This document shows, piece by piece, positions 27,041 to 59,617 of a DNA stretch of 64,000 nt. The translations under genes and the position numbers were made by a program. Every line of letters begins with the position of its first letter. The first letter of the stretch is position 1. This DNA is from a virus: the IMG/VR virus record IMGVR_UViG_3300037475_000071, positions 36,156 to 100,155 of that record. One strand, given 5' to 3'. The notes under the pieces were generated by a model. The model was given only the letters and a program-made list of their open reading frames with translations. It made no database searches and was not told the DNA's origin.

Positions 27041-27080
27041 CAGTTGGTTGTCTCCTTGTTTATGGGGTTAGAGGTTGACC

Positions 27081-27113: not shown

Positions 27114-27121
27114 AGCGAAGT

Positions 27122-30538: not shown

Positions 30539-30595
30539 TTTAGAATAAAGTCCCTAATAGAATTGATTGCGCAGCGATACGCACGACTTGGTTGT

Positions 30596-30625
30596 CTCGT
30601 CCTTCTACGTGGGTAAAAGGACGAG
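30596..30625 (-). terminator. intergenic hairpin
   Basis: CTCGTCCTT...AAGGACGAG. Confidence 0.5.
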
Positions 30626-30633
30626 CACCTGTT

Positions 30634-32319: not shown

Positions 32320-32999
32320 TACACATCCTTTATCTGGTTGTCTTGTTGTTCTCGATGAGGACAGACACCATAAATAAATTTCGCCATATTGCAGTTATGG
32401 CACAGCACTTGAAAACCTTCAGGGAAGTTGTGAGTTTTTAGCCACTGGTACATAGATGGAAACTTTCCCTCACGTCTATGTTTGCTACCGCCGCCGTTTA
32501 TATGGTCGATGCAAAGAAAATGCAACATACTTTCCCCGCAACACGCACATTGTGGTGTACCGTTGCTATAGTGTGTCAATACACTGAGACGTAGTTTTCT
32601 TCGTCTTGACCGTTTGGCTTCCGCAAGCTCAACGGAGTACACTTTATGCCTGCGATTACAGTTTTTCCTATGAGCTTGTCTGCATTTAACACACATCGTA
32701 GCTCCCTCATCCGGAGGAAACTTACCACACGTCTGACATAAGCCCTTGCTTTTCCACTCAGAACGCTGCTGTTTGCTTTTATCGTTCTTACAGCGCTTGC
32801 ACTTACCTCTTTTGTCTCTGTTTTCTTCTGTGAGCGCGTGACCCCGCTTGCAGTGCGTCTTCTTGTGGTATGTCTTAGGTGTGAACTTATTATGATGGCC
32901 TTTAAGGAACCGTTTGGGTTGACCCTTCACCATCCCTCGCGGTCGATTAGTGCTGCCGTACACACCTGCATCCTGCCCACAACCGCACTCACAGAGCAT
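32319..32999 (-). CDS. HNH-type endonuclease with multiple Zn fingers
   Basis: CECGCG, KTHCKRGH, CACCGE...IDHINGGG...FQVLCHNCN. Confidence 0.85.
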   Translation of the reverse strand: MLCECGCGQDAGVYGSTNRPRGMVKGQPKRFLKGHHNKFTPKTYHKKTHCKRGHALTEENRDKRGKCKRCKNDKSKQQRSEWKSKGLCQTCGKFPPDEGATMCVKCRQAHRKNCNRRHKVYSVELAEAKRSRRRKLRLSVLTHYSNGTPQCACCGESMLHFLCIDHINGGGSKHRREGKFPSMYQWLKTHNFPEGFQVLCHNCNMAKFIYGVCPHREQQDNQIKDV

Positions 33000-34443: not shown

Positions 34444-34545
34444 GTGTATAGCCCTTTCTGAACTGAAATGAAAATTAAGGGATGCAGCCAAGGTAGGAAA
34501 TGAAAAAGCCGCATCCCTAAGCAGAACGAACTGCGGGATGATTTG

Positions 34546-34574
34546 ATTGTTGCACACTTCCAGTGCGTTGTCAA
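34546..34574 (-). promoter_or_regulatory. sigma70-like promoter P4
   Basis: TTGACA-17-AACAAT with GCAC...GTGC dyad. Confidence 0.5.
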
Positions 34575-34579
34575 CTGCT

Positions 34580-34987
34580 TTATGTGTGTTTGCCGTTGCT
34601 GTCGGTGCTTTGAAAATTAGGGGTTAAAAACCGGCTGATGTCAGTACGCAATTGAGCGATGTCCGACCTCAGTTCCCCCTTCATGGAATTGACCAATGAC
34701 GTTACGCGATCTACCATCTCGGTACGACGCCGCTCTTCATGCTCGAACATCGTCTTAACCTCGGTGTGATGGGCTAATGATTGAGCCTCGGCTTTTTCTA
34801 TCTTTCGTTCCAACTCCATCTTGTTTTCCTTGGCGGCATTCTCGGCTTTTTCAACCCGCGTTTCCATCTCCGATTTGTTCTGTTTCAGAGTCTGGTAAGC
34901 ATCCTTGATGAAGTACCCTACGATGGCAAAAATGCCAGCGATTATAGCACCTACTACTTTAAGAATTTCAACTATGAGTTGTTCCAT
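34580..34987 (-). CDS. single-TM coiled-coil protein (holin/XhlA-like)
   Basis: N-terminal TM then charged coiled coil. Confidence 0.6.
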   Translation of the reverse strand: MEQLIVEILKVVGAIIAGIFAIVGYFIKDAYQTLKQNKSEMETRVEKAENAAKENKMELERKIEKAEAQSLAHHTEVKTMFEHEERRRTEMVDRVTSLVNSMKGELRSDIAQLRTDISRFLTPNFQSTDSNGKHT

Positions 34988-35013
34988 TGCTCTCGCGTTC
35001 TTGACCCCAGTAT

Positions 35014-39419: not shown

Positions 39420-40379
39420 TCACCCGTATCGGCCATTGTTGCTGGCGTAATTTTTCCAACTCTCGGCTATAATCTCTGACGAGAACTGAGCAAAGAAAGA
39501 CCCTGTTGGTATGGTCGGGTCGGTTTTACCATTGAGCGGAGCCGGAACATCCTGACACTCATTGGCCCCGAACTCTAGCAGACTCGGAGCTTCGAACTGA
39601 TGACTTGTTTGGCCAGATAGACCAGAACCAATGTCGTCAATCGCTGTCACCCTGATGTACCGAGTTGGAAAGAAATCAGAATCATCCAGCACGTAGAAGT
39701 TGTCCGGCGTGTTAACGGAGCGAATGATGTTCGCCATGTTTGCACTGGTGGCGTCGATTTCCACCAAGTACATAGAGGAGTTAACTCCCGTCCAGGTCAG
39801 CTTCTTGGTGCTATCATCCACAGCCAAGTTTGAAATCTGAGGCGTCGGGATAACAGTTGCGTTAGTGGTCGTGTCCCACGCCGTGCTGAACTCACCTAGC
39901 AAGTTATAGGTGTACACGAAGTACGCTGGGTTCCTTGCGGAATTTCCGTTGTTCGTGAACTGGTACTGGCCTGCAATGATGTCCGTCGATTGCCCGTCAA
40001 TGATGTCCTGATGCAGTAGCACTGTCTTATTGTCAGCAGCCCTAATTTCGTAGCCCCACACATTGTCCTGCACAGCAGGCAGCGTGACCGTAATCACTGG
40101 CGCGGTGATGGTAGTGGTGTCCACGGTCGCTGTGGGAGCATTGGGAATTAGAGGCAGCGCAATGTGGAGTCCAGCGGCGTAGCGGGACAACGCTCCGTAA
40201 GGAACACTGGCTGTCTTCGCATACAGAGTTTCTGTCAGTGTGCCCACCTCCAGGGAGGCTCGCGTTATTTTTACCCCGATGTTCAAAGACAGGTCATAGT
40301 TTTCAAGAAGTATGAAACTAGACCCGTCTTCTTCAACGAGGAAATCTACGCCGTTTTCCAACAGAAATGCGGTATCCAT
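39420..40379 (-). CDS. tail protein (FN3-like) with N-terminal acidic-hydrophobic LLE.G motif
   Basis: FLLENGVDFLVEEDGSSFILLEN; GYEIR, Y.VY.YN..G..S. Confidence 0.7.
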   Translation of the reverse strand: MDTAFLLENGVDFLVEEDGSSFILLENYDLSLNIGVKITRASLEVGTLTETLYAKTASVPYGALSRYAAGLHIALPLIPNAPTATVDTTTITAPVITVTLPAVQDNVWGYEIRAADNKTVLLHQDIIDGQSTDIIAGQYQFTNNGNSARNPAYFVYTYNLLGEFSTAWDTTTNATVIPTPQISNLAVDDSTKKLTWTGVNSSMYLVEIDATSANMANIIRSVNTPDNFYVLDDSDFFPTRYIRVTAIDDIGSGLSGQTSHQFEAPSLLEFGANECQDVPAPLNGKTDPTIPTGSFFAQFSSEIIAESWKNYASNNGRYG

Positions 40380-40398
40380 GTATGCCCCTTAACTGTGG

Positions 40399-42519
40399 TT
40401 ACTGCATTTTGTATTGCACAATTACATTGAGGTTAGTTGGAGGGGTGCCCCCAACAGATGCGGTATTTAATCTTATAAGCAGAGTTGCCCCAGCAGCAAT
40501 GTTGAGTGAAATTGCTCCGGAATCAAAGTTACCGGTGGAGTTGGCAATAGTTGTGTCTTGGTTATTTGTACCGTCTCCTACTCTCACGATTGCCGCGGTA
40601 GTCTGCCCAGTTGCACTAGACCCTGCTACAATTTGCACACGAGTTATCGTGATAGCTTTGTCAAGAGTAGTATTAGCCCATGTTCCTACTCCAGTAGTTG
40701 ATGGAATAAATCCCGAAAGATACGAACGCGGGTTGGCACTCATAGCCGTATCTCCACCAACACTTAATGACTTAGGAACTTGTACGGCTGTTGTGCCCCC
40801 AAATGATACCGTTCCGGAACCATCGCTTTTACCTCCAATCACTAAAGCGTGAGTCCCATCACCGAATACATCAGGAAATGCAGTATTGCCGGCCGACCGT
40901 ACGAATGCCGCGTCATATAGTGTTACTGGGAGGTATGTATTCGTAGGCATACTCGTCACGGAGCCTGAGTCGAATACTGATACGTTTGGACTGGTAAAAC
41001 TACCTCCCGCAAAGCTTACCCCCACTGTGCTCTTTACCCTGTTGTTCCTAATGGACACCACTGCGGCCGACACAGCAGCGGTAGTTGAAAAAAGAATACC
41101 GGAATCAGAACCCCCACCACTAGTAATGAAATTATTGCTGATATGAATTTCATCAGTGTAAGTAGCGGTACCGGACGTTTCATTAAGTGCGTTTATATAG
41201 ATATTGCCAGATACCGACGTTGTGCAACTAAGATGATTTCCTCTTATGGAAATCTGCTTTCCCCATTGAATACCTATCAATGCGTTTGCAGATGAAATTG
41301 ACGCCATCAGAATTGAGTTATTGGCTATAATCAAACCAGTAACCACGTTGGTAGGAGGGGTCGCATCTGACGACACGTCTATGCAGTTCCATCCAGCTTG
41401 CTGCCCAAATATTACGTTGTTAGAGACTACAATATTCTGCGTTAACGCAAATGCAAGGGTGGTGGTATCCGCAGAAAACACCTGAATGGATACGTTTTTT
41501 GCACCATCAATTATATTTCCTATGATAACTGAATCAGAACCCCTCCCATACTCAATGGCAGCACCGCCAGCGGAAGTTTGCGTTCCTCCGTGATTACGGA
41601 TATAATTTCCTGCGCAGTAATAACCTCCGCCTGTAGCCATATAAATGCTATGCCGTTGGCAATCTTCAATGTGGTTATTTACTATCTTGGTGCCGGAAGG
41701 GCCACTAGCGTTCAGTGCCATACCATAGCCACTACCGGGAGCAGTTCCCGTAATACCGCTTATCCAGTTATTCTCAATAGTGTTATTAAACGACGGATCA
41801 GTGAAATCAGTGCCTATGTATATTCCCGCACCAAACATGTTAGACAACTTGCATCGTCTAATGGTTACATGAGTAATATGATCTTCCAGTTCTATTCCAA
41901 ACTGGTTTGCACTATTTGTGGTTAAAGAGTCTCCATTAATAGTTACGTCGTCAAGCAGTACATTGTTAATCGGGGTACCACTATTGTTAATAAAAATTCC
42001 GATACAGTTGATACCATTCATTTGCAGGCTTCCACCATTGATTACCACATTGCTGGACTTAACCTGAATTGCATGGAGACTGCTAAACGTGAAAGTAGCT
42101 GCGGAGGGGGCTGGCAAAAGCAGCACGCACGGCTTGGTGATAACAATGGCTGCTGAGAAAGACTGGCTGCCAACCAAACCTTTTGCGTTTATAACTCCTC
42201 CCGTGGAAGGCAAAGCAGCAAGAGCCGCATTAATCTTAGCGTCTGCTGTAGCTCCCGGAAAAGCGTCCGCAAATAGCGTGGTGTTGCAAGAATATAGCTC
42301 GGCTATCCAAGGTGCAGAAACACTGCCTAGGGATTGCGTGGTATTCCCGCTAGCAGGAAGAATATGGTGGGCACTAACACTCTGGTCTGCTCCGGGAGCT
42401 TTAAGAAGAAAATCCGAAACAGGCAACTTGACGTTACTTCCAGAACGCGCCGCTGGGATAGCGTCTGTAGGTTGCGCGGGTGACCCAGAAGGTAGTGTTG
42501 AAATCGTGGAATTACTCAT
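40399..42519 (-). CDS. tailspike with pectin-lyase-like beta-helix (no signal peptide)
   Basis: N-terminal ISTLPSG...DAIP anchor; ADAKINAALAAL; I.NN.I repeats. Confidence 0.82.
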   Translation of the reverse strand: MSNSTISTLPSGSPAQPTDAIPAARSGSNVKLPVSDFLLKAPGADQSVSAHHILPASGNTTQSLGSVSAPWIAELYSCNTTLFADAFPGATADAKINAALAALPSTGGVINAKGLVGSQSFSAAIVITKPCVLLLPAPSAATFTFSSLHAIQVKSSNVVINGGSLQMNGINCIGIFINNSGTPINNVLLDDVTINGDSLTTNSANQFGIELEDHITHVTIRRCKLSNMFGAGIYIGTDFTDPSFNNTIENNWISGITGTAPGSGYGMALNASGPSGTKIVNNHIEDCQRHSIYMATGGGYYCAGNYIRNHGGTQTSAGGAAIEYGRGSDSVIIGNIIDGAKNVSIQVFSADTTTLAFALTQNIVVSNNVIFGQQAGWNCIDVSSDATPPTNVVTGLIIANNSILMASISSANALIGIQWGKQISIRGNHLSCTTSVSGNIYINALNETSGTATYTDEIHISNNFITSGGGSDSGILFSTTAAVSAAVVSIRNNRVKSTVGVSFAGGSFTSPNVSVFDSGSVTSMPTNTYLPVTLYDAAFVRSAGNTAFPDVFGDGTHALVIGGKSDGSGTVSFGGTTAVQVPKSLSVGGDTAMSANPRSYLSGFIPSTTGVGTWANTTLDKAITITRVQIVAGSSATGQTTAAIVRVGDGTNNQDTTIANSTGNFDSGAISLNIAAGATLLIRLNTASVGGTPPTNLNVIVQYKMQ

Positions 42520-42535
42520 TACGGGTTATCCTCAA

Positions 42536-45517
42536 TTAGGTGCCTGAAATAAATACAGCGTAATCTGAGCCATTAACCGTGCTCGCGGCTGTGTAAGAAA
42601 CCGATACACGTTGCCAGTCCGTTGTCAGCACCACGCTTTGGCTAGCGTACACAGTGTTCGTTGACGAACTGCGTATGCCCACCACTACGGTCTTACCTAT
42701 GTCGGTGAGTGTATCCGCCTTGACATCCACGGAGTAGGTCAACAGCGTACCCACGACTTCCGGAACCGCTGTCGTCTGGAAACACTTGCCTGACGGCACT
42801 ATCGTCACCTTACTGATTAGCGACTTGGTTCCGTCGGGGTTTATATCCATCTTGTTGACTGTCGGCGTTATGCCTCCAGTAAGCAGTTGCCACGCGGAAG
42901 CAGTGAAGTCTTCCGAAAACAGCACTTGGTTTCTACCATCCTGCGCTTTGACCCACACGGCTTGGCCGCGTAATGTGCGAGGAACTTGGAAGGCTCTACC
43001 AAGCGAGCGCATCACAAGGTTCTTAGCGTCGTCACATCCCCATGACTCGTTGGTGTAGCGGATTTCAAATCCACCACCACCGGGCGGGTCTTGGTTGGTG
43101 GTAAGGTAGTAGTTGCCACTGTCCCACGAGAGCAACGAAGGCCCGATTACGTCATCTGCAAACGTAGTGCCTACGGTACTGATGCTGATTGCATTAGGAA
43201 TTTCGGCATCGTCTTGCGGCTGCCACGGAGTATTAGGCTTGGTGAACTTAGCGAGGAACTTCTGTTCCATGCTCTGCCGGCCAAACGTAATCTGTAGGTC
43301 AAACACTTCCTTGGGGATCAAGGAACTAAACGTAGTTGCCACCTGTGTAATAGACTCGGCTGTGAGCGTTGGCGGAAACTGCGTAGGCATGTTCTGAAAC
43401 TTCAGAACCGTACCCGACAGAATTTCCCCAGTAGCCTCGAACAGATTAGTCAGGGAATATGTCCCGTCCCAGTGCTGTCTGCCTTGGTCTCCCACTATTG
43501 CTTGGGCGGCCACCTCGCACTCGCCAGATGTTCTCGGCAAAGGCGACAGGTTGGAAGTCACTGCCGAACGCAGGCCGTTATCCCCCCACGCCGCCGACTC
43601 CGTAGCAACAGAGCCCTTATCCTGAACACGTCCAATAGACGCTCCGGCTCGTCGGTAGGTAAACCAAATAAGGTCACCCACATTCGGCATAGTCTGCGTT
43701 TGATTCACCGTGTCAACGAAAAACTCCAGAGCAGCGTTGCCGGGGTTGTACTGAATTCTGCCCAGCAGAGACGACCGCGTAGTAGCGCCTTGGTTAGAAT
43801 CCACCACAGTGGCTACAGGAGTGTTGCCGTCATAAGAATCAATCTCATTAGGCCCAATCAGCTTGGTACTAAACACCGTGCTGCCCTTTGGCCTAACCTT
43901 CAAGCCAGCGTGCAGCGGGGTTGATATGGTCAGCCCTGTAAAGCTACAATGCAGATCATTCAAAACCACAGGGATGTAAAAAGCGAAACCCAAATCTGCA
44001 CTTATAGGCACAGTGTTGGTGCATTCCATGAATGCTGTCGAACCGTTAGCCTGTGTAATAACCGTGCCCGTCTCTGGGTCGATGGCTATAATCTTTGTCT
44101 CTGCCGTCATCGTGTCGGGCAGCATTGGCTGGCCAACAGTTTGCACGGCACCGTTCGCGTCAAGGTACGAATAGTTCTGGGTAAAACGCTTGCTGCGTTG
44201 GAATGTATAATTGGTACGAACCACGTAGCGAAGATTGTAGTTACCCAGCAACACGCCTTGAGTGGTGTCCACAAGCCCGTTAACAATCGGGTTAACCAGC
44301 ATGGCCGCTACGCCATTTTGTATAGTCGTAGTCTTAGTGAGCTTCAGTCCGTAAAGAACTTTGGCCAGAGTATTCGTCGGCTCCCCAGTCCAAAGACCAC
44401 AAATCACTCCGTCTGAGGATTGAACAAAGTCATACTCCCCGTGGGTGATTCGCATACTGCCTTCCAGCGGAAACTGGAACTGGGTCTGCATCCACACGTC
44501 GTACTGGCCGTTGTTGTTGCCCCCAAGGGCATTACAAAATCCGTTGGAGACCTGGATGAACTGAGTGGGAGTGTCGAACACATCCCACTTCTGCTGGGTG
44601 TCTATCGAAGAGCCAGAGAAGGTCTCGTCGAATAGTAAATTTGTATCAGCTCCGTAGCACGAAGCAATAAGCGGGAATTTACCGTTCCAGCCATCGCCAA
44701 CGAAATATTCGCTCATGTAGTCCTGCGGCTCAATGTCACCGAGAACAACAGCGTCGTTTACGATAGGGTCGTTGCTAGGAGTAAGGCTAAGGTTCGCAGG
44801 CGTAAAATCCACAACTTCGCCGTCGATGATGAGCGGAGCGATGCGGCTGTCGATTGGCTCGAAATACAGCTTGCCCTGCCGTGCCGCAAAACGGTAATTG
44901 GCCGCCTTGCAAAAAGCGTCAACCACGTCCTTCCACTTTTGCGTGGGGTCAACGATGTACCGCGCCATCATCAGGCCGTCCTGAATGTTGGAAACATCGA
45001 AGTTCCACTCAGGTGCCATCACCCCAGCCAAGGTCTTGAGTATCTGGCCTTGGGTAATGTTCATGAACGGAGACAGCAGAGGCAGCGGGTTGAGATTGAG
45101 AAGATAATCTTCCCCAGATGCCTCGTACACATAACCGAAGACAGGCTGGCCGCTTCTCGAACCTAAATAAGTAAGGTTTGGATCGCTGGTAATGAAACCC
45201 GTGAACCAAGGGCCGTATGAAGCTGTATCTAGCTGAATGTACGCCCCGCGCTGTAGCTTTACGAACGCAGAGTCTGCGGGGAATACTGAGAAATCCAACA
45301 CATCGGGTGTATTGAGTACGTCCTTCTTTATCGGCGCATTAAAAAGATAAGGCAAATAATCATAGCTAGAACCGGCCAAGGTGCTCCACAACCTAGCAAC
45401 CATCGGCGATACAGCAGGCTGGGTATTAGGCCATGCAGTATTGGGCCAGAACATGCCTCCCGCCGCTCTAGGGGCAGGAGACGGAGTAGGAGAAACATCT
45501 TGCCCTAAAATACTCAT
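42536..45517 (-). CDS. large tail tip/hub protein
   Basis: 993 aa downstream of tape measure; FVGDG, D..S...ES..WG.G; C-terminal partial beta-sandwich. Confidence 0.7.
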   Translation of the reverse strand: MSILGQDVSPTPSPAPRAAGGMFWPNTAWPNTQPAVSPMVARLWSTLAGSSYDYLPYLFNAPIKKDVLNTPDVLDFSVFPADSAFVKLQRGAYIQLDTASYGPWFTGFITSDPNLTYLGSRSGQPVFGYVYEASGEDYLLNLNPLPLLSPFMNITQGQILKTLAGVMAPEWNFDVSNIQDGLMMARYIVDPTQKWKDVVDAFCKAANYRFAARQGKLYFEPIDSRIAPLIIDGEVVDFTPANLSLTPSNDPIVNDAVVLGDIEPQDYMSEYFVGDGWNGKFPLIASCYGADTNLLFDETFSGSSIDTQQKWDVFDTPTQFIQVSNGFCNALGGNNNGQYDVWMQTQFQFPLEGSMRITHGEYDFVQSSDGVICGLWTGEPTNTLAKVLYGLKLTKTTTIQNGVAAMLVNPIVNGLVDTTQGVLLGNYNLRYVVRTNYTFQRSKRFTQNYSYLDANGAVQTVGQPMLPDTMTAETKIIAIDPETGTVITQANGSTAFMECTNTVPISADLGFAFYIPVVLNDLHCSFTGLTISTPLHAGLKVRPKGSTVFSTKLIGPNEIDSYDGNTPVATVVDSNQGATTRSSLLGRIQYNPGNAALEFFVDTVNQTQTMPNVGDLIWFTYRRAGASIGRVQDKGSVATESAAWGDNGLRSAVTSNLSPLPRTSGECEVAAQAIVGDQGRQHWDGTYSLTNLFEATGEILSGTVLKFQNMPTQFPPTLTAESITQVATTFSSLIPKEVFDLQITFGRQSMEQKFLAKFTKPNTPWQPQDDAEIPNAISISTVGTTFADDVIGPSLLSWDSGNYYLTTNQDPPGGGGFEIRYTNESWGCDDAKNLVMRSLGRAFQVPRTLRGQAVWVKAQDGRNQVLFSEDFTASAWQLLTGGITPTVNKMDINPDGTKSLISKVTIVPSGKCFQTTAVPEVVGTLLTYSVDVKADTLTDIGKTVVVGIRSSSTNTVYASQSVVLTTDWQRVSVSYTAASTVNGSDYAVFISGT

Positions 45518-50133: not shown

Positions 50134-50658
50134 CTAGAGTTCTTCTATGCGAACGTTGGCGGCAAACGCTTCAGCGGCGGATTCGCCCTGAAGTCTGCCC
50201 TCGACACTAGTTCCGGGAAGTTGCTCTGCAAAACTAGTGGTAATGCGGTCTACAGCGTAAGGCAGCACATTAGACATGAGAGCTTCGTGCGCAGCCTCTG
50301 GGTCTAGGTTGCCTTGAAGAGCTATGCCTATTGTCTGTGCCGCGTATTTAAGTATGTCATCTACTACTTTACCAACCATGTGACGAGCAGCGATGGGCGG
50401 GTGCATCTCGGTGTATGGAGGGCCGACTCTAGGTACGTATGTGGCCTCTGGGAATTGGGCGGTTTCAGGCAGCCTAAGGTCTTTGGCAAAAACTACGTCG
50501 ATAGGGTATGCCGTGGCCGTTCCGAACTCGTGGTAATACCACCAACGAAGTTCATCGGGCACCGTCAGCTTTCCAGCTATCTTGGTGCCTTGGAACTTAC
50601 TACGCATACTCTGCAACTTGCTGGCGAGGGCTCCATTGGACTTCAATTCGAAACCCAT
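50134..50658 (-). CDS. tail completion/neck protein (HK97 gp10-like)
   Basis: YHEFGT...HP.I.ARH; GAGGAG RBS before ATG 50658. Confidence 0.65.
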   Translation of the reverse strand: MGFELKSNGALASKLQSMRSKFQGTKIAGKLTVPDELRWWYYHEFGTATAYPIDVVFAKDLRLPETAQFPEATYVPRVGPPYTEMHPPIAARHMVGKVVDDILKYAAQTIGIALQGNLDPEAAHEALMSNVLPYAVDRITTSFAEQLPGTSVEGRLQGESAAEAFAANVRIEEL

Positions 50659-50669
50659 TGGAAAGCTCC

Positions 50670-51020
50670 TCAGTTCAGAAAGTCCTTGTAATAATGCTTC
50701 CACTGCTTAGAGTCCATATTCTTCAACTCAGGTGAACCAGCATCCTGCACCGATTTAGGCGTAGGCTCTTGGCCCTCTTCCTGTTTCTCCCGCTCACGCT
50801 TTGCGTCGAATCGGCGTTGACTCCGCTCACGATTGACCCACGCAGCATGGTTCAAAAGAACAAGCTGAGGAACGGTGAGCTTCATGGCATCTGCGTACGA
50901 CCAGTGATAAGCCTCACACAGGGACGCGACTACCAAAAGCGGGTTCCCTTTGTCCTCTATTCCGAAGGTTGGGTCTTCAATCCAAGCATCTTCATCAGCG
51001 GAAGAATCTGTCCGAAAAAA
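50670..51020 (-). CDS. tail assembly chaperone GT extension, reached by -1 frameshift
   Basis: -1 frame open from slippery site to stop at 50670; LCEAYHWSY...LT.PQL. Confidence 0.8.
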   Translation of the reverse strand, partial: FFRTDSSADEDAWIEDPTFGIEDKGNPLLVVASLCEAYHWSYADAMKLTVPQLVLLNHAAWVNRERSQRRFDAKREREKQEEGQEPTPKSVQDAGSPELKNMDSKQWKHYYKDFLN

Positions 51021-52234: not shown

Positions 52235-52687
52235 CTACAAATTACTGGTATGGAGGGTTATCTTGCAGGTGTAGTGAGCGTAGAAGTCGCTGTGCACCTT
52301 GAGGAACTTTACAGACTTGTTCCAAAATATGTTAGAGCTTTGATACACGGGAGTGCCCGTTTTGTACGACTCTTTAGGGGTCATCAACGCGGCGTTAAGC
52401 AATCCCCAAATCTGATCTACCCAGTCCACCGCGGAGAGTTCATCATCATTCACCACGTCCAACGACAACTGCAATATACTTACGTGGATGTCGGGGTCTA
52501 ACGCCATTATAGAAACGTTGAATGCGTTCATTTCCAGACGGTCGGCATTGGCATCGGTGGATTGCCGGCGCACTGGGTGCACTGGGATACCGACTAGGTT
52601 GTCAGCTAAGAAATGGAGGAAGGTGTCGTAGCAATTCCTGATCGAGCCGCCATCCGAAGGAGAAGGTAGTTGCCCGAGGATGCCCAT
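52235..52687 (-). CDS. tail terminator-like protein
   Basis: 150 aa directly upstream of tail tube; position-based. Confidence 0.55.
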   Translation of the reverse strand: MGILGQLPSPSDGGSIRNCYDTFLHFLADNLVGIPVHPVRRQSTDANADRLEMNAFNVSIMALDPDIHVSILQLSLDVVNDDELSAVDWVDQIWGLLNAALMTPKESYKTGTPVYQSSNIFWNKSVKFLKVHSDFYAHYTCKITLHTSNL

Positions 52688-52705: not shown

Positions 52706-54508
52706 CTAATGCACAAACCTTGAGACAAACCATTTGGTCAGCATCACTGAGGGAGCAATAGCTGGCGTGACACCGGAAGAAAACTGATAAGCGCCGATGT
52801 CCCATGCTGTGCTTCCCGTTGGCCGTGAATTAGAAGTTCTCTGCGAACACACGGACTGAACTACTCCGCTGACGGTTTGCTCGGTACACGCATAAGTCGT
52901 ATCGCTGGTCGAGAATCCGCCGCCGGGCAGCCATGCGGAAGTCAGATTCGTGCCCGTACCGACCGTAGCCGCCGATCCGTTAGGCGGGAAATATACATAG
53001 GGACTCTGGGCACTGGTATATCCCTGCGATGTGCCTGTAGCCTGACTTTCCACTAAATTATTGGAGAAGGTGATGGTGGTTGCGCCCGTGATGGATGCGC
53101 CTCCCGACAACAGGTTTCCACTCTGCGCTGTGCCGCTTGGCGTACCGCTGGTTAGGCACATATTGTTTTGGAAGATGGCGAAGCTGGTCCAGTTAGCCCC
53201 AGAGCATCCGCTATAGGACAGGCATGAATTGCGGCCATCGACGTTCGTATTGTTCACATACCAAATGCCAGTTACGCCGGTCGAGCAACTTTGCGGGATG
53301 TTTGGGCCGTTTGTGCCATTGTCGTTATAGAAAAGGTTGTTCCATACATAGTCGGTTTCGCTGGGATTTCCGACCTGCAAACTCTCGCAGGTTACATTGT
53401 CGTGAATGCGGTTGTCGTGAATATAGTACGGGGTAGCGGTTCCCCCAAGTGTCTCGATGCAGTTGGCATGTACCCCGGCTATACCTTGGCCTAACTGAGT
53501 GATGTCATTGTACGCATACTCTCCGCCAGTTGCGGGCTTGATGCAGTTCGAAAGATAAGAACAGATCGAATGTTGCAAAGGGAACTGTATCCCACCTGCG
53601 GTGAAATGTGTACCGTCGGAGTTGTCGATTACGCTGAACGTTACCGCGCAGTTCGGGCAGGTGTTCGCACCTTCGGCGGAAATCATGCCATCATTGTCGA
53701 GAGACGATGCGCCATTCACTGTAGAGTGGATGTAAAAATCATTGAATGTCTGGTGATCCCCGGTTGTGCCAGGAATGATCCAACCGTCGCGAGTAAAGCA
53801 TCCTGTCCCTGAGCCGTTATTGCTGAAGTAATTTGCAAGCTCAATCCAGTTCCAATCGACAAAGCTGGTTGAGCCGGTGCGGATAAAGATATTATGATTC
53901 GATGTTCCGCATTCAGGTGGGTTGATTACTGAGCCTCCACCATCGAATATCGGTCGGTTCCACGTTAATAAGCCGGAGTTGTACCATGTGCAATTATTGT
54001 CGGTGGTTGTCCCGCCTATGGTTTGATTCCATGTTGCTGGCTGGGTTCCGCCGCTGGTACAGGACGCATGTGTCGGAATCTGCGGACTGTAGGCAAATCC
54101 CCCGGCATTGCCGGTGGTCGGGATGATGACTGTATTAGTGAAGTAACTGGTAGCCGCCGCCCATGCTGGCGCTGTGCAGGTGGAAGACCATGTTTGATCT
54201 ACCCCGATAGTAATGTGCGATCCGCTCGTTCCACTCCATGCCCACGTAATCGGGAAATTCGCGTTCCCCCAATCATCGCAGCCCTTTAGGACGAAGGTAT
54301 CTCCCGCGACCGGAGTGTAAGCGGCAACGTTTCCCGATGCAGACAACATTCCGGGAAGATGCGCCCAGGGCGTCGTCTTTGACTGCGCCTGCGTCGAGGT
54401 ATTTGTATCTGACCCAGAAGTGGAGATGAAATAGGTATGCTGCGCAAACGCAGGCGAAAAGCATACCGCGACAAATATCCACAACGCATATCGTCGTAAG
54501 TGGTTCAT
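52706..54508 (-). CDS. signal-peptide beta-helix protein with inserted carbohydrate-binding-like module
   Basis: MNHLRRYALWIFVAVCFSPAFA/Q; YFISTSGSD.N...PW.H, GDT..LK.G, WDIGAYQF; insert WAAATSY...SGGTQP.W...TTDNNCTW. Confidence 0.78.
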   Translation of the reverse strand: MNHLRRYALWIFVAVCFSPAFAQHTYFISTSGSDTNTSTQAQSKTTPWAHLPGMLSASGNVAAYTPVAGDTFVLKGCDDWGNANFPITWAWSGTSGSHITIGVDQTWSSTCTAPAWAAATSYFTNTVIIPTTGNAGGFAYSPQIPTHASCTSGGTQPATWNQTIGGTTTDNNCTWYNSGLLTWNRPIFDGGGSVINPPECGTSNHNIFIRTGSTSFVDWNWIELANYFSNNGSGTGCFTRDGWIIPGTTGDHQTFNDFYIHSTVNGASSLDNDGMISAEGANTCPNCAVTFSVIDNSDGTHFTAGGIQFPLQHSICSYLSNCIKPATGGEYAYNDITQLGQGIAGVHANCIETLGGTATPYYIHDNRIHDNVTCESLQVGNPSETDYVWNNLFYNDNGTNGPNIPQSCSTGVTGIWYVNNTNVDGRNSCLSYSGCSGANWTSFAIFQNNMCLTSGTPSGTAQSGNLLSGGASITGATTITFSNNLVESQATGTSQGYTSAQSPYVYFPPNGSAATVGTGTNLTSAWLPGGGFSTSDTTYACTEQTVSGVVQSVCSQRTSNSRPTGSTAWDIGAYQFSSGVTPAIAPSVMLTKWFVSRFVH

Positions 54509-54643
54509 AATTTTATGGGTACTCGAAGGTGTAGACCCCAGCTTCCTGAGAAGCTGCGGCGGTAGTTGTCGTAAGTGGTTCATAATTTTATGGGTACTCG
54601 AAGGTGTAGACCCCAGCTTCCTGAGAAGCTGCGGCGGTAGTTG
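54493..54643. repeat. perfect 75 bp tandem duplication spanning a gene junction
   Basis: 54493-54567 identical to 54568-54642. Confidence 0.95.
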
Positions 54644-55343
54644 CTGTACCGGAGACTGTGTAACTACCAACGGATGTTTCAACTGCATAGCATCCAATCA
54701 GGGCCGACGAAGTTCCGTTGCCTAGAACGGCTTGCGTAAATCCGCCGCCGCAGGAATATCCGGGATTCGCAGTGAACTGCGAAATCCATCCAAAGACGAG
54801 TTCGTGGCCTTGGGCTGTGGTTCCACTTGCATTCGTGGCCCAAGTGGTCGTGTTTTGGGCCAGCATTGCAGGGTTTTTGTCTAAGCAAGCACTGGTATTG
54901 ACGCCGGAAAATTCTAAGACCGCATCATTTTGCGAGAAGCCGCCAAAATCAATCGCAGTGAAGGCTACCGATGAGCACGTGTACCATGCCTGATCCTGTA
55001 CGCCAGCGCCAGACAACTGCGTCCAGGTCGCTGAAGGAGTTGAGACTGGGCCAGTAGACACGCAATTGTCGTTTGAATCCGCTCCGCACAAGGCAATGAC
55101 CAGGTGCCCGGTTCCAGTCGTGGCCAATGTTGGAGTGTTGTTGCACTGCGGACTTCCTGAGGTATTGATTACGCAGTGCGTGGCTGTGTTTTTGCAGTCG
55201 CAGTTGAGGTTTTGGATTAGGGCGACGCTCCCGCCGCCCCCACCCGTCACTTGGAAATCCCCGGTACCGGGATCGCCAGCCACCCCTTGGCCAAAGCAAA
55301 CAACGGAGCATAACAACATTACACTAAGAATTATTGATCGCAT
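54588..55343 (-). CDS. Cys-rich signal-peptide beta-sandwich protein
   Basis: MRSIILSVMLLCSVVCFG/Q; Gly linker; LEFSGVNT..LD. Confidence 0.75.
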   Translation of the reverse strand: MRSIILSVMLLCSVVCFGQGVAGDPGTGDFQVTGGGGGSVALIQNLNCDCKNTATHCVINTSGSPQCNNTPTLATTGTGHLVIALCGADSNDNCVSTGPVSTPSATWTQLSGAGVQDQAWYTCSSVAFTAIDFGGFSQNDAVLEFSGVNTSACLDKNPAMLAQNTTTWATNASGTTAQGHELVFGWISQFTANPGYSCGGGFTQAVLGNGTSSALIGCYAVETSVGSYTVSGTATTAAASQEAGVYTFEYP

Positions 55344-57346
55344 TCGAGTTGTACCTGTACCATTTTGGAGGTTGCAACAGCGGTGATGTTTGCCGCCACA
55401 ATATCATTCGGCGTCACCGTCGTAGTAGTGAAATCCGTAAGCGTAGTTGAATGGAGTGCCGTACCTGTTGCCAAAGAAACGCCACTGGTAGAAATTGAGT
55501 TAGATACAGTGGGAATTGCCGTACCGCTGGCAATCTTCCAGAACTTTACAGTGAACGTTCCAGCGTCAGCTAGTAGATTGTAGGCCGACACTGTACAGCC
55601 GAACGGAACTGTCACATACCGAGTAATGCTGCTTGATAGTGCCGAGCCTTCCGCCGCGCCAAATGTAAAGGTAATGGTGCGAATCTTGATGCGGTCTACA
55701 TAGGCGGTCGTTGCCACTTTGGTGGAATTGTCATCCGCGGACTGCGTAGTTGCCGTTATGCCACTCGGCAAAGCCGTGGCTGGAGTAACTCCTCCATTAG
55801 CATCACCAACAGCTATTTTCGTGGCATCGAAGGTTCCCGTACCTGTCTGCACATTAGCGTCGGTGCCGTTCAGGGCCTTAGAGGACGTAATTGTCGTTGC
55901 ACTGCCGGCCACTGCAACCTGTCCTACAGTCATCCCAGAAAGAGAACCGGAAGATGGCGCAACAAGCCTTGCATTCCAAATAGTGCTTTCGCCGTTACTG
56001 ACGGTCGCGCTGCCAGAATCAACGATTGTGAAGCTAGTCTGTGCAGTAGCTTTAGCCACCGTGCCAGTGAGGTTGATTGTGTCGCTTCCACCGCGATTGA
56101 CTGTGAGGGTAGAACCACTCTCATTGATGAGAGCGAATACCATACTGCTACCGCAGCCAGTTGCCGTGTGATCTGGTAGAGTCACTACGCTGGCACCGGA
56201 ATCAAATACAATCGTCGTATTGCGGTCTATAAGTGCCGTTGAACTATCGCACTGAACTACATAAGGCGTGGTAGTAACGTGTGCTCCGCTGTTCCCATCC
56301 TTTAAGCCGGGAGAAGCAAACGCCATCGCTGAGCCATTGGTCGCGGTTGGAACCTGGCCAGTCTTCGCAGCGGTATCATTGATAGGGGTATCCCAAGATG
56401 TATTGGAGCCAGTGTGATGAGCAATTCCAGTGCCGGATGGCCAAGTCATTGAACCAGCACCGGTAGCCAGAGCCGTCCATGTATTAGTCGCCGAGCAAAA
56501 CTTCATCGCTACACCGACCGAGTTAAACTCAATCTGCCCAGCCGTACAAGTAGCGGGGTCAGACGAATGAATCGGCTGCAACACATCCATAGCGCTGAAG
56601 TCCTGTAACCCCCCGCCTGAATAGGTGTTTGCCTGGTTCTTAAAAATAATGTTCGCAACGTCAGACAAATCCGCAGACGCAGGCTGTGCTTTTGTGAACG
56701 CGCCTGTTGTACTGTTATACGCACTAAAGAACTGGTGCGTAGTAGCAGTGGTATTAGCAGCAAGAGTCGGCGTACCAGTCAGACTGGAATAGGCCGTACC
56801 ATTGCAAAATGCACTAGCGTCTGATAGGTCAGCGCAGGCCGGGCGGAAATATGCAGGCGTTCCTAATACCCCAGTGTTATTACCAAAGAAAGTATGTGCC
56901 GCCGCTTGCGACAGAGAAAAAGCAGGTGTAGTAGTTGGATTAGCTACAGTAAATAACGGAGCCAAGCCGCTCACAGTGGTTACGGTTCCTGAGCCACCAC
57001 CGACACCTGTAGTGGCGCTTATCTGGCACCGAGTAATGGATGTTGCAAACCCTACTGCCGATTCCTGACACCAGTAAATGCCGGGTGTAGCGAAGAATAT
57101 ATAATTAGCATTCAAATCTGCTACGGTGGTGGTTCCTAAAGATTGGGTGAGGGCTGCATCGCTGTACAGAGTAATAGGACTGGCGCACGCTTGGTCAGTG
57201 CATACCTTAATAGTTGCGCCGGGAATAGCAATCAATGCGTTGCTGTTTATCAGCTTACCTTCGGCCTTGTCTTTATACAGACCACCTTGGGCAAACGCAC
57301 CACACGAGGACAGAAGCAAAAATACAACAAAATGTCTCAATGACAC
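55331..57346 (-). CDS. fibre/spike-like protein with signal peptide
   Basis: MSLRHFVVFLLLSSCGAFA/Q; IPGATI.V...LYSD.........AD...Y.FFA.PG.Y anchor-like domain; TQSADDNSTKVATTAYV fibre repeat. Confidence 0.8.
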   Translation of the reverse strand: MSLRHFVVFLLLSSCGAFAQGGLYKDKAEGKLINSNALIAIPGATIKVCTDQACASPITLYSDAALTQSLGTTTVADLNANYIFFATPGIYWCQESAVGFATSITRCQISATTGVGGGSGTVTTVSGLAPLFTVANPTTTPAFSLSQAAAHTFFGNNTGVLGTPAYFRPACADLSDASAFCNGTAYSSLTGTPTLAANTTATTHQFFSAYNSTTGAFTKAQPASADLSDVANIIFKNQANTYSGGGLQDFSAMDVLQPIHSSDPATCTAGQIEFNSVGVAMKFCSATNTWTALATGAGSMTWPSGTGIAHHTGSNTSWDTPINDTAAKTGQVPTATNGSAMAFASPGLKDGNSGAHVTTTPYVVQCDSSTALIDRNTTIVFDSGASVVTLPDHTATGCGSSMVFALINESGSTLTVNRGGSDTINLTGTVAKATAQTSFTIVDSGSATVSNGESTIWNARLVAPSSGSLSGMTVGQVAVAGSATTITSSKALNGTDANVQTGTGTFDATKIAVGDANGGVTPATALPSGITATTQSADDNSTKVATTAYVDRIKIRTITFTFGAAEGSALSSSITRYVTVPFGCTVSAYNLLADAGTFTVKFWKIASGTAIPTVSNSISTSGVSLATGTALHSTTLTDFTTTTVTPNDIVAANITAVATSKMVQVQLECDQ

Positions 57347-57375: not shown

Positions 57376-57819
57376 TTACGGGCGGGAAATGCTTTTCGCA
57401 TAGACCATGAACATGATGTCCACACCACCCATTGCCACGGGGTCGTAATCCGTTATCTCAAATATCTCTTTGTTGCTTGAAGCATCAACGAGGACAAGAT
57501 ATGTTAAGCCACCATCTAACTCAGCCAGAGACATAGCCGTGGGCGAGCAGATAAAGGCATACATGTTTGCCACTTCCTGCTTTGACCCTTGGGCGAGCAT
57601 TTCTGAACGCGAACCAGGCCCAACATCGTATCTAGCCAAGCGCGTATATGTCGGTTGTGGGCTGAGAATAGTATCCACAGTGCTAGAAGTCGCACGTCCT
57701 ATAAGGGCGTCCCCACTTCCGGTCGTCACTGCTCTCTTGTAAACTATGCGGTCTCCGGGGCCGAACTTCTTAAGCGCATTGTCGAGTCTGTTGCGAATAC
57801 TGAGGGCTCTGCTGGCCAT
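57376..57819 (-). CDS. head closure/head-tail joining protein
   Basis: 147 aa after adaptor; position-based. Confidence 0.55.
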   Translation of the reverse strand: MASRALSIRNRLDNALKKFGPGDRIVYKRAVTTGSGDALIGRATSSTVDTILSPQPTYTRLARYDVGPGSRSEMLAQGSKQEVANMYAFICSPTAMSLAELDGGLTYLVLVDASSNKEIFEITDYDPVAMGGVDIMFMVYAKSISRP

Positions 57820-58418
57820 TAACCCCTCCGCAACTTAGGCCCGCGCATCAGATAAGGCTTAACCATTTCATAAGCCACTGGCGCGAACATGCTTCCTTCG
57901 AATCCATACTGCTGGCTGACGTGAATCTGGCCGCGGCCAATGGACACGGAGTCAGTCACAATGCCTTGCATACGATTGGCGAGGGCCGTCTGGTCGAACG
58001 TCAGCATATAGACGGCCTGCTCACACTGCGCCATCATGATAGGTTCAGGAATAAAGTTGGCACCGGTAACGGGGTCGATGTCCAGATTGCGAGGAAACTG
58101 AAGAAACTGGTAGTAATAGAACTTAACCGGCTCCCGCAGAAGCTGGAAGTTCATAATCAACCCAGTTTGGCGGTTGTAGTAACTCTTCCAAACTGACGCA
58201 TCCCGTATTATCGGCGTCGTGAACCGCGCCGACTCTATCGTCCGGCACGCGCTTATCAGCAACAGCGGCTTAGCCGCCACAGAAACCGCAGACCATGCGG
58301 AACTGAGAGACGCGCTCCAGTGATTGGCGAAGTAGTTGTCCGCGTATGGCACGTCAACGTAGCTATTGGTACCGTCATCGACAGTACCCATTATCGTGTT
58401 GTCTAACGCGATTGCCAT
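57819..58418 (-). CDS. head-tail adaptor (DnaT-like annotated family)
   Basis: NSYVDV.YADNYF, L.FPR, IP..I..AQCEQA; start moved to ATG 58418. Confidence 0.75.
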   Translation of the reverse strand: MAIALDNTIMGTVDDGTNSYVDVPYADNYFANHWSASLSSAWSAVSVAAKPLLLISACRTIESARFTTPIIRDASVWKSYYNRQTGLIMNFQLLREPVKFYYYQFLQFPRNLDIDPVTGANFIPEPIMMAQCEQAVYMLTFDQTALANRMQGIVTDSVSIGRGQIHVSQQYGFEGSMFAPVAYEMVKPYLMRGPKLRRG

Positions 58419-58768
58419 CAGAACTCCTCTAACTCCACGGTCTTGCCGGCCAACTCGTGCGTGCAATCAGCTAGGTAAATAATTTTGCCGTCGTTAACGT
58501 GTGAATGACAGCGGTAGCAGACAAATGGCGCAGGGTCTGCGGGATGTTCCTTGTTATAGGTACACCAACAGTAGTCGCCGGGCTTGTGTTGTGGGCAGTA
58601 GTGACCTGACGTAACGAGAACGGAAGGCATAAACGTAGGCCGTTCCCTGTCACCGTTCCAAGTCCATTTACCGATTGTTACCGCGTGGGCTTCTTTACAG
58701 CCCGGACACCAAAACGCTATGCGCCCGTCATCTGTTGTCCGCGTCTTCTTGCCGACATGCGGCTCCAA
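58418..58768 (-). CDS. DUF6527-like Cys/His protein
   Basis: CPGC..H, WTWNG....PTF.PSV, CHS....G.I....DCTH.LAG.TV.L. Confidence 0.8.
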   Translation of the reverse strand: MEPHVGKKTRTTDDGRIAFWCPGCKEAHAVTIGKWTWNGDRERPTFMPSVLVTSGHYCPQHKPGDYCWCTYNKEHPADPAPFVCYRCHSHVNDGKIIYLADCTHELAGKTVELEEF

Positions 58769-58773
58769 ATGAG

Positions 58774-58986
58774 TTACTGCTTTCCCTTTTCAGCTTCTTC
58801 TGCGAGCCTGAGTTCTTCTTGGTAGGCGGCTTCGAACTTGGGGTCTTTTCTCAAGTCGGCGAGCAAACTGGAAGTAACGTTAGTTGGCGGAACGGACTCA
58901 GTTGATGGTGTAGCCGGCTTCGGAGCTTCCGGAGTTGGCGTATTCTGGCGAAGGTGGTAATGACGGCGAAGCGCTCCTAATCCCAT
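58774..58986 (-). CDS. hypothetical protein
   Basis: AAGGAG RBS; MGLGALRRHY. Confidence 0.65.
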   Translation of the reverse strand: MGLGALRRHYHLRQNTPTPEAPKPATPSTESVPPTNVTSSLLADLRKDPKFEAAYQEELRLAEEAEKGKQ

Positions 58987-59617
58987 CTTGGTTGGTCTCC
59001 TTTAATTCTGCGGGAAGTTCTATTCCCATGTCGTTACAACGTTGTTGCAGTCGTTCTAAATCAATTTTGCGTTCTCGTCGGCGGTGGCAGTTTGAGCACA
59101 ACAAGGTACACTTCTTTAACTCTGAAAGTATTTTGTCCCACCCCGATCTGAGAAGGTCTCCTACTCCATTTTCTTTAATAGTAGGATCAGTGTGGTGGAA
59201 ATCATACACATCAATGTCTTCGGTGCGTAAACCGCAATCAACACACTCACCACCGCAGAACTTTACCGCAGTTCTTTTGTTTTCCCTGTTTCTAACGGCA
59301 ATATTGAGCCTCAGTTTCAAAGCACACGTAGGGCAGCGTTTCTGGCCGCTATCTCTCGGGCCTCCACACGACATACAACTATTGTCCGCGTCTCTCTTTA
59401 CGCGCTGCTCTTTAGCCAGCACAGCAGTGCAGTCCGAACAGTAAGAAGAAACGTAGGGCTTACCCGACTTCCTCTTGCCCTGTTCTCTGGGGTTAATATT
59501 GCAGCGTTTACACAACGAATACACCATGTAATCAGTATACCTTAACGTGGGCGACTTCACAACTGTTTTATGTGGCTTCGGGTACATGCTAAAGTCGGGA
59601 GAACCCGCGAACAACAA
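58898..59617 (-). CDS. HNH endonuclease with Zn fingers (true start uncertain, possibly near 59527)
   Basis: GGECVDCG...YDFHH.DP..K...ELKKC.LLCSNCHR. Confidence 0.85.
   Translation of the reverse strand: MLFAGSPDFSMYPKPHKTVVKSPTLRYTDYMVYSLCKRCNINPREQGKRKSGKPYVSSYCSDCTAVLAKEQRVKRDADNSCMSCGGPRDSGQKRCPTCALKLRLNIAVRNRENKRTAVKFCGGECVDCGLRTEDIDVYDFHHTDPTIKENGVGDLLRSGWDKILSELKKCTLLCSNCHRRRERKIDLERLQQRCNDMGIELPAELKETNQDGIRSASPSLPPSPEYANSGSSEAGYTIN

Follow-up and report, generated by a model that had tools for sequence, protein, structure and literature searches.

A late-gene cassette for three exported-looking proteins at the head-tail junction of a soil phage

Introduction

Assembly of tailed phages is taken to be an entirely cytoplasmic process, and export signals are not normally present on their fibres and depolymerases. 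In the phage DNA analysed here, three genes for exported-looking proteins, one of them fibre-like, lie between a head-closure-like and a tail-terminator-like gene, which raises the question of whether their products act on the virus particle or elsewhere. Our literature search for signal peptides on phage fibres returned no paper describing such a case. A first-pass annotation had read the three genes as a collar, whisker or head-fibre complex built from exported subunits.

The window, i.e. the whole stretch of DNA that was analysed, comprises 64,000 nt (positions 36,156 to 100,155 of IMG/VR record IMGVR_UViG_3300037475_000071), and all coordinates refer to it. Its source is a 100-kb soil phage whose host probably belongs to the Acidobacteriota.

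Genomic organization and insertion of the cassette

The cassette consists of three closely spaced minus-strand genes, here called A, B and C, and a check of the open reading frames at their coordinates confirmed that genes of the sizes first proposed (671, 251 and about 600 aa) are real. Gene A (55331..57346, minus strand; 671 aa) has a GTG start with AGGA 7 nt upstream. Gene B (54588..55343, minus strand; 251 aa) overlaps the 3' end of A by 13 nt with its start, and gene C (52706..54508, minus strand) encodes 600 aa from the ATG at 54508. An exact 75-bp tandem duplication (54493..54642) takes in 54 nt from the end of B, the 4-nt spacer and 17 nt from the start of C, thereby supplying a second in-frame ATG at 54583, from which C would have 625 aa with 25 additional residues before the signal peptide. 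Since the duplication repeats the end of B and the start of C, one of these two ATG codons is the start of C, and a 663-aa frame from TTG 54697 was rejected as over-extended. Spacings across the cassette and its flanks are 29, −13, 4 and 18 nt.

The upstream flanking gene p147 (57376..57819, minus strand) is head-completion-like (head-closure) and the downstream gene p150 (52235..52687, minus strand) tail-terminator-like, and both are conserved in relatives. These assignments are leads only: p147 is similar to head-completion proteins (Phage_HCP, TM 0.59/0.74), and the nearest named clusters of p150 are all tail-terminator families (scores 0.92-0.93). Searches of Pfam and NCBIfam returned no family for A, B, C, p147 or p150. 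In three relatives whose capsid is 69-71% identical (L005, L006 and L007), nothing separates the counterparts of p147 and p150, which directly adjoin or overlap each other; A-B-C is therefore an insertion, as first proposed. The cassette is thus inserted, optional and closely packed inside the late-gene cluster.

Neither an excess of promoters nor of terminators was found around the cassette, as a moron with its own promoter and terminator would have; five promoter-like sites were observed where 9.1 were expected, and none flanks the cassette. No direct repeats were found at its borders and no compositional anomaly was seen, the frames are open and codon use resembles that of the core genes. 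Paralogues of A, B or C are absent from the window, and no match to A or C was obtained in the covered parts of five related or compared virus records or among 50,697 cultured-phage records. In G406, the closest long relative, the tail-tip proteins are all signal-less, and A, B, C and the other large signal-bearing proteins are missing.

Export signals and cysteine content

Export was called with our own heuristic predictor together with conservation in homologues. All three N-termini are signal-peptide-like: a basic n-region precedes a hydrophobic core of 12-15 uncharged residues, and a small-x-small motif stands before Gln. The heuristic predicts signal peptides of residues 1-20 in A (57287..57346, minus strand; cleavage AFA/Q), 1-19 in B (CFG/Q) and 1-22 in C (AFA/Q). 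Signal character is kept despite sequence divergence in 36 of 42 homologues of A, 5 of 7 of B and 107 of 119 of C, and a protein 85% identical to B (P0164) carries a different signal sequence. The mature parts contain even numbers of cysteines (12 in A, 10 in B, 18 in C), and among the late proteins the cysteine content is 2.0% in signal-bearing ones and 0.75% in the others (p 0.0016).

The clustering of the signals alone is weakly beyond chance: given about 8-11 signal or transmembrane N-termini in 122 ORFs, arithmetic on the counts gives a probability of about 0.02-0.07 for a run of three, and shuffling with a looser predictor, which flagged 18 ORFs, gives 0.26. It is the conservation in homologues that provides strong sequence evidence, so that the exported-looking character of A, B and C, which the first-pass annotation had recognized, is well supported by prediction. 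With secretion signals on all three, the proteins most likely mature outside the cytoplasm, the compartment where phage particles are built.

The signal peptide of A also contains a lipobox-like LSSC at residues 12-15 (Cys15), and both LSSC and the AFA/Q site, pointed out earlier as possibly competing, are present. In the closest homologue (P0002) the motif is conserved in the form LSAC and in another (P0023) it appears as AVTC, and the h-region preceding it is short. B and C have no canonical lipobox by the pattern used ([LVI][ASTVI][GAS]C at the end of the h-region).

Gene A and its pairing with gene B

From its sequence, A is a mosaic fibre-type protein. Behind the signal, a β-rich N-domain of about 95 aa contains the motifs PGATIKV...LYSD...PGIYW (about residues 42-91) and is followed by Gly-rich and ~45-aa fibre-type repeats (110-300), a β-sandwich (~345-460), the element DNSTKVATTAYV (~545-556) and a C-terminal knob (560-671; phrog_35197); both quoted motifs had been noted before. 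Matches are partial and mosaic across homologues, which in turn match PHROG tail-fibre, collar-fibre and baseplate families and Peptidase_S74. Between residues 361 and 669, A matches an 855-aa phage fibre that has no signal (L002), and in a search of viral sequences with A only the C-terminal knob was found, in this same contig; the corresponding search with P0002 gave no match. These relationships agree with the fibre-like nature originally assigned to A.

Structure prediction was less informative for A. The AF2 model is poor (pLDDT 50.2; about 40 in the N-domain) and returned nothing in Foldseek, and VIA-align gave weak matches for the central domain (Z 5-6.4 at best), mostly to phage fibre or spike domains. 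No sequence relatives in the PDB were found for A, B or C, nor for profiles of B and the A knob. A proposed correspondence of the A N-domain to that of a 684-aa tail protein of a relative via the LYSD motif is not supported by BLASTP (E 3.4), and the earlier spike-anchor-like reading of this domain gained no support from the model or from this comparison.

Protein B comprises its signal, a Gly-rich linker and a Cys-rich β domain with 10 Cys. It is a near-orphan belonging to a small family of exported-looking proteins of about 245 aa, and metagenome and viral searches with B gave no match. Still, the A-like/B-like pairing recurs: in an acidobacterial prophage-like element, a 1428-aa A-like protein adjoins one of 630 aa whose N-terminal domain belongs to the B family (E 2e-15). 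Both have signal-like N-termini, and their genes, accompanied by one for a lipoprotein, lie in the interval from the repressor region to the terminase gene. Beside C-like genes in other phage contigs a B-like partner was looked for and not found. The idea of B as a chaperone (cf. GH136 LnbY) was dropped, there being no B match beside cellular C homologues.

Gene C and its cellular relatives

For C, the model (pLDDT 84.5, pTM 0.84) is that of a right-handed parallel β-helix glycanase- or lyase-like protein, in which the β-helix begins at about residue 22, i.e. directly behind the signal, and only a helix (2-16) stands ahead of the fold. The fold matches (Z 23.4 to 5mqp, 22.2 to 5olq, 21.8 to 9ozd, 21.4 to 1ru4) span Z 20-23.4 and include the glycoside hydrolase BT_1002, PL9 lyases, the VPS lyase RbmB and PL6 lyases; Foldseek gave E 2.7e-7 to GH136. 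At sequence level, the searches placed C in no Pfam, NCBIfam or CAZy-linked family. Invariant residues of the family are E223, H261, H347, E352, E384, R185 and R562, and a 65-aa insert at about 115-180 is common to only 4 of 70 aligned homologues.

The family is mostly cellular. There are at least 195 full-length homologues, and 67 genome loci were found, nearly all from Acidobacteriota and often several per genome, with phage C nested within an Acidoferrales-type clade. The cellular genes sit in polysaccharide-synthesis clusters of the kind that make exopolysaccharide, capsule or O-antigen, with GT2/GT4 transferases, Wzx-type flippases, epimerases and deacetylases, and none of the 25 most frequent of their 54 neighbour families is a phage family. 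A TYYV/TYFI β-helix cap directly follows the signal in C and its aligned homologues, except in P0045 and P0047-P0049, where a short Cys-rich stretch comes first. Neither the model nor the homologue alignment shows an N-terminal particle-binding or adaptor domain before the β-helix, as a tailspike would have. In other soil-phage contigs, C-like genes are found in runs of 3-5 large signal-bearing proteins resembling whole fibre sets; one phage C-like protein (L097) has no signal.

Possible roles of the cassette

We tentatively prefer, with a probability falling somewhat short of even, to read A-B-C as an optional late cassette whose three products, Sec-exported and disulfide-bonded, would target the surface polysaccharide of the host and act off the particle. 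The cassette would be co-transcribed with the late genes and its products exported in the infected cell. C would be a glycanase or lyase that, as with its cellular relatives, ends up in the periplasm or at the cell surface, because the phage copy keeps the cellular layout of a signal followed directly by the β-helix. A would be a modular, probably trimeric fibre-type adhesin with a signal/lipobox, a β-rich N-domain, a mosaic shaft and a glycan-binding tip; the tip is of a kind common to true phage fibres, and the overall build would be that of exported Bdellovibrio MAT fibres. B would be the small exported partner of A. As free or cell-bound factors, the three proteins may cut or mask the polysaccharide at about the time of lysis, so that progeny would escape more easily and not stick to debris. 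The neck position would then represent a permissive gene junction in the late operon, with no neck function.

Three observations count against action off the particle. Signal-bearing proteins can reach particle preparations, because the records of Cellulophaga phages phi10:1 and phi19:1 call such proteins virion proteins from MS/MS; the runs of signal-bearing proteins with C-like genes in soil phages point the same way; and virion-bound depolymerases are far commoner than free ones. The alternative, corresponding to the first-pass idea, is that A, with B and C docked to it, is exported, oxidised and trimerised in the periplasm and binds finished particles at the neck or head upon envelope breach, forming disulfide-stabilised whiskers with a depolymerase. 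We regard this as possible, if rather doubtful. The cassette does occupy the neck slot, A has fibre-type modules and shares its receptor-binding half with a real fibre, and its weak central-domain matches are mostly to fibre or spike domains. It is the annotation of the Cellulophaga proteins that keeps virion association of A, B and C possible, by analogy, although MS/MS of particle preparations can include co-purifying envelope proteins. Comparison of the A, B and C domains with known neck, collar and capsid-binding modules in Pfam, PHROG, PDB and NCBIfam gave no match, assembly after lysis would be diluted, and the relatives without the cassette have a complete signal-less adsorption apparatus. 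Of the original collar, whisker or head-fibre proposal, the exported-looking subunits thus stand, whereas no tie to collar, neck or head was found and the cassette is absent from the closest relatives. For C in particular, the outcome is the one that the first-pass annotation had named as refuting its proposal, because its architecture is exactly that of cellular acidobacterial polysaccharide-cluster enzymes and it has no particle-binding domain.

It is improbable, in our view, that the cassette serves receptor masking or superinfection exclusion, with A, in the form of an anchored lipoprotein, and B occupying or covering the receptor of the phage on infected cells or lysogens, in the manner of T5 Llp or Cor, while C trims it. 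The LSSC/LSAC motifs, the receptor-binding-type tip of A and the position of the pair in the prophage-like element, next to a repressor region and with a lipoprotein, would fit such a function. However, A-B-C are part of the late structural operon and lack a separate promoter, while exclusion genes are as a rule active early or during lysogeny. An exclusion lipoprotein of 650 aa would also be unusually big, and neither an integrase nor a repressor came to notice in this phage. That the hydrophobic N-termini are unused for export, the proteins folding in the cytoplasm as ordinary fibre or spike parts or the cassette being useless passenger DNA, is very improbable, for although the signal is missing in the L097 C-like protein and in the L002 fibre with the A-like tip, signal character is conserved across three unrelated families, B differs in its signal from P0164, cellular relatives of C carry the same signal, cysteines are even in number and enriched, and the frames are open with phage-like codon use.

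Judged from sequence, fibre-type and depolymerase-type genes clearly carry conserved predicted secretion signals at this locus, and they do so as members of a structural operon. Should the products remain off the particle, as we prefer, they would form a matrix-clearing or receptor-masking module that soil phages express late, with a bearing on how viruses spread in soil biofilms rich in exopolysaccharide and on what is claimed about carbohydrate-active genes of viruses. Should they become part of the particle, virion assembly would take place partly outside the cytoplasm. It is conceivable, though we would not count on it, that tailed phages of at least two host phyla (Acidobacteriota and Bacteroidota) send part of their host-recognition gear through Sec, with periplasmic folding, disulfides and docking at envelope breach, here at the neck.

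Comparison with known systems

T4 fibritin and the neck passage structure of the lactococcal 936 group are likewise encoded by accessory head-tail-joining genes present in some relatives and absent from others, and their products are cytoplasmic and signal-less. Their gene location is similar to that of A-B-C, and no sequence or fold link was found. Tailspike depolymerases (HK620, CBA120 TSP2/3, KP32gp38, 9NA) share the β-helix fold with C (Z 15-19), and like C are phage-encoded and presumably aimed at surface polysaccharide, but their N-terminus holds a particle-binding domain instead of a signal peptide, while C shows the reverse.

The closer counterparts of C are cellular. RbmB of Vibrio cholerae (9ozd) is a secreted right-handed β-helix (Z 21.8, rmsd 2.9, 300 aligned), and a PL9 lyase (Z 22.2), PL6 lyases (Z 20.3) and AlgG (4nk8) belong to the same exopolysaccharide-processing group. 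RbmB-type enzymes are encoded in polysaccharide/biofilm clusters, as cellular members of the C family are in polysaccharide-synthesis clusters.

The architecture of A resembles that of the mosaic adhesive trimer (MAT) fibres of Bdellovibrio bacteriovorus. These resemble phage fibres and are exported, their presence on the cell surface has been demonstrated, and they consist of a signal peptide, a conserved ~130-aa β-rich N-domain, a long mosaic trimeric shaft and swappable tips (PMC10769870). The N-domains are matched by layout only, and one A homologue has the S74 chaperone domain found in many MATs. MAT fibres are products of cellular genes of a predator, whereas A is phage-encoded in a late operon.

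Among phages, Cellulophaga phi10:1 (gp091-gp095; NC_021802) and phi19:1 (gp101-gp104; NC_021799) encode proteins with textbook signal peptides ending in A/G-Q, of which gp091-094 and gp101-104 are annotated in the records as virion proteins from MS/MS. These proteins have no sequence similarity to A, B or C, their genes are located at the distal end of the tail module and not in the neck slot, and the hosts are Bacteroidota. In the Cellulophaga phages, the signal-bearing set also looks like the only fibre set, whereas the phage studied here has signal-less tail-tip and spike proteins in addition. Nevertheless, these cultured phages show the same signature as A-B-C, namely consecutive late genes for signal-bearing fibre-like and β-helix 'pectate lyase' proteins within the structural module.

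Organization of the late-gene module

The 100,155-bp IMG/VR virus record, of which the window forms bases 36156-100155, is rated complete. The late genes on its minus strand start with portal (63902-62178), followed by scaffold, major capsid protein (phrog_247), HNH endonuclease, DUF6527 protein, Ad1 head-tail adaptor (phrog_477) and p147. Next come gene A (57346-55331, minus strand, 671 aa), gene B (55343-54588, minus strand, 251 aa) and gene C (54508-52706, minus strand, 600 aa), and then p150, p219, two chaperone-like genes, p189 and the 1306-aa tape-measure protein, all in the same orientation. The gaps p147/A, A/B, B/C and C/p150 amount to 29, -13, 4 and 18 nt. Based on its Atlas structure, which matches Phage_HCP (TM 0.59/0.74), p147 looks like a head-completion protein, while the nearest named clusters of p150 all represent tail-terminator families (scores 0.92-0.93). 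Taken as leads, these matches are consistent with the flank labels head-closure and tail-terminator in the first-pass annotation. The position of p189 (50134-50703) between chaperone-like and tape-measure genes is unusual; the gene is kept in all relatives and no family match was found for it.

At the B/C junction, a 75-bp exact tandem duplication (54493-54642) takes in the last part of B, the spacer and 17 nt from the start of C. The repeat supplies C with a second in-frame ATG further upstream and with two identical start contexts; starting at the upstream ATG would possibly lengthen the protein by 25 residues, basic in character, before its signal peptide. Recent slippage could have produced the duplication, or it may be an artefact of assembly. 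A 663-aa frame listed earlier for C was rejected as over-extended, and C was taken as 600 aa. In the public annotation, B is cut down to a 142-aa C-terminal fragment (P0165); the 251-aa frame, including its signal, is backed by the 85% identical homologue P0164.

Comparison with relatives

For comparison, five IMG/VR contigs with a capsid protein 61-71% identical to that of the window were used, three of which (L005, L006, L007) extend far enough to cover the p147-p150 region. In all three, the homologues of p147 and p150 directly adjoin each other, abutting or overlapping, and the order from portal to tape measure is otherwise colinear with the window, which bears out the earlier statement that A, B and C are inserted. 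No match to A or C was found in the searched parts of the records of capsid-sharing relatives. In the longest relative (G406, 35 kb), the tail-tip proteins are all signal-less, and it shares just one of the window phage's seven late proteins with signals, the small protease-like p247. Neither a promoter or terminator private to the cassette nor flanking repeats were found, and its codon use is phage-like; the cassette is thus an optional component, well integrated into the late operon, and not a classical moron.

Two further differences were observed. HNH endonuclease and DUF6527 zinc-ribbon genes (58418-59617), located in the capsid-adaptor interval, are absent from L004-L007 and so mark a second site of insertion among the structural genes. 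At the tail tip, one 1442-aa protein of G406 (L098:3346-7674) matches both p993 (residues 29-1159) and p319 (residues 1168-1438), and in the window (39420-45517) the beta-helix gene p706 (40399-42519) lies between these two, which looks like a tail-tip gene interrupted or split by the arrival of a spike gene.

Predicted export signals and cysteine content

At the N-termini of A, B and C, a basic stretch leads into a hydrophobic core free of charged residues, and a small-x-small site stands before Gln. With our own heuristic, which was used for all signal calls, signal-like N-termini were detected in 36 of 42 homologues of A, 5 of 7 of B and 107 of 119 of C. The signal sequences themselves differ, and that of P0164 is unrelated to the signal of B. 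As judged by this heuristic, the description of the three proteins as exported-looking thus holds for the window as well as for homologues. The LSSC of A fits a lipobox, with LSAC in the closest homologue (P0002). The chance of a run of three signal-bearing genes is about 0.02-0.07 by our arithmetic (8-11 such N-termini among 122 ORFs), which is weakly improbable alone, and 0.26 by shuffling with a loose predictor. Mature A, B and C contain 12, 10 and 18 cysteines, respectively. With zinc-finger proteins left out, cysteine makes up 2.0% of the seven signal-bearing late proteins versus 0.75% of the other late proteins (Mann-Whitney p 0.0016). From signals and cysteines, we are fairly confident that A, B and C would be exported and fold in the periplasm.

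The other four signal-bearing late proteins are p808 (with PKD domains), p561, p1138 and the trypsin-like p247 (24872-37440). Outside the window, in the early region, a 196-aa ORF (G000:C1:16111-16701) has a textbook signal start (MKTILMILACFSSLATA/Q).

Gene C and its cellular relatives

Full-length homologues of gene C number at least 195. When one genome per species was scanned, 67 C loci were found, nearly all in Acidobacteriota (Acidoferrales, Sulfotelmatobacter, Acidobacteriaceae, Bryobacteraceae) and often several per genome. Among 132 ORFs neighboring cellular C genes, common Pfam families were GT2/GT4 glycosyltransferases, Wzx-type flippases, UDP-GlcNAc 2-epimerase, polysaccharide deacetylase and sugar-nucleotide enzymes; of the 54 families present there, the 25 commonest include none from phages. 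In a quick, unrooted maximum-likelihood tree, the phage C groups within an acidobacterial clade that includes Candidatus Acidoferrum (SH-aLRT 99). Since cellular copies are many and phage copies few, transfer from host to phage is the simpler reading.

The AlphaFold model of C is of good quality (pLDDT 84.5, pTM 0.84) and consists of a signal helix followed by a right-handed beta-helix from residue ~22. With VIA-align, the best agreement was obtained with the glycoside hydrolase BT_1002 (Z 23.4, rmsd 3.0, 309 aligned), a PL9 rhamnogalacturonan lyase (Z 22.2), the Vibrio polysaccharide lyase RbmB (Z 21.8), Pel9A (Z 21.4), and PL6 and alginate enzymes (Z ~20); Foldseek agreed. In the aligned members nothing separates the beta-helix cap from the signal, save a short Cys-rich stretch in P0045 and P0047-P0049; C therefore lacks a particle-binding domain. 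A 65-aa insert in C is common to only 4 of 70 aligned homologues. Ten IMG/VR contigs also have C-like genes, usually in runs of 3-5 large signal-bearing proteins and sometimes as fusions of 1418 or 1729 aa; one C-like gene (L097) is signal-less. On four contigs (L093-L096), 3-5 consecutive large signal-bearing proteins of up to 1729 aa, some with a C-like beta-helix, adjoin holin-like genes.

Genes A and B

The 42 homologues of A are each partial, covering residues 1-230, a ~45-aa repeat at 186-229, 321-490 or 531-671. A scattering of these homologues gives hits to PHROG families of tail fibres, collar fibres and baseplates and to the S74 chaperone domain. A signal-less 855-aa fibre, encoded after the head genes on a podovirus-like contig, matches residues 361-669 of A with its C-terminal part. 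The DNSTKVATTAYV motif noted in the first-pass annotation is present in A, precedes the C-terminal knob and is retained in P0017. For the putative spike-anchor role of the N-domain, BLASTP against a motif-sharing tail protein of a relative gave no significant match (E 3.4). AlphaFold modelled A poorly (pLDDT 50.2); the exception is a beta-sandwich at ~345-460, whose best matches are weak (Z 5-6.4) and mostly phage fibre and spike domains. Besides two closer homologues, the near-orphan B has a few distant relatives of ~245 aa; most of these proteins carry signals.

A-type modules occur in only 2 of 401 sampled Acidobacteriota genomes. One of these carries a prophage-like element (L080:8807-14985; L082, G244:C19) with the order S24 repressor, A-like gene, B-family gene and lipoprotein gene, then terminase and head genes. 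Its 1428-aa A-like protein directly precedes a 630-aa protein with a B-family N-terminal domain (hmmsearch E 2e-15), and both, as well as the lipoprotein, have exported-looking N-termini. Because of this adjacency, A and B look like a functional pair.

Proposed role and comparison with known systems

Once exported, A, B and C would work at about the time of lysis, either free or bound to the cell, with the neck site serving as a permissive junction. We tentatively favor this reading, to which we give not quite an even chance, on the basis of the relatives without the cassette, a backbone with a full signal-less adsorption apparatus, and the lack of an adaptor domain in C. The main rival, to which we give a somewhat lower chance, is the original proposal, in which exported subunits join the particle later; the Cellulophaga phages weigh in its favor. 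In phi10:1 (L085, 11848-18879), five consecutive tail-module proteins (gp091-gp095) and in phi19:1 (L087, 14017-20154) four (gp101-gp104) have textbook signals, and for eight of these nine (gp091-gp094 and gp101-gp104) the records give structural status "based on experimental MS/MS proteomics". Particle preparations of cultured phages thus do contain fibre and lyase proteins that bear signals.

The cassette is made of known kinds of parts, with a depolymerase of the beta-helix type, a mosaic fibre and Sec signals. What is new is their combination: fibre-type and depolymerase-type genes whose export signals are conserved lie amid the head-tail joining genes, and one enzyme comes from a mainly cellular family; no published description of such a combination was found in a limited literature search. 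Compared with Bdellovibrio-type MAT fibres (PMC10769870), A together with B can be read as an exported adhesin of the MAT-fibre kind. Phage tailspikes match the fold of C with Z 15-19 (VIA-align). The most likely substrate of C is the surface polysaccharide of the host itself, which it would cut or modify in the manner of RbmB and other cluster-encoded enzymes.
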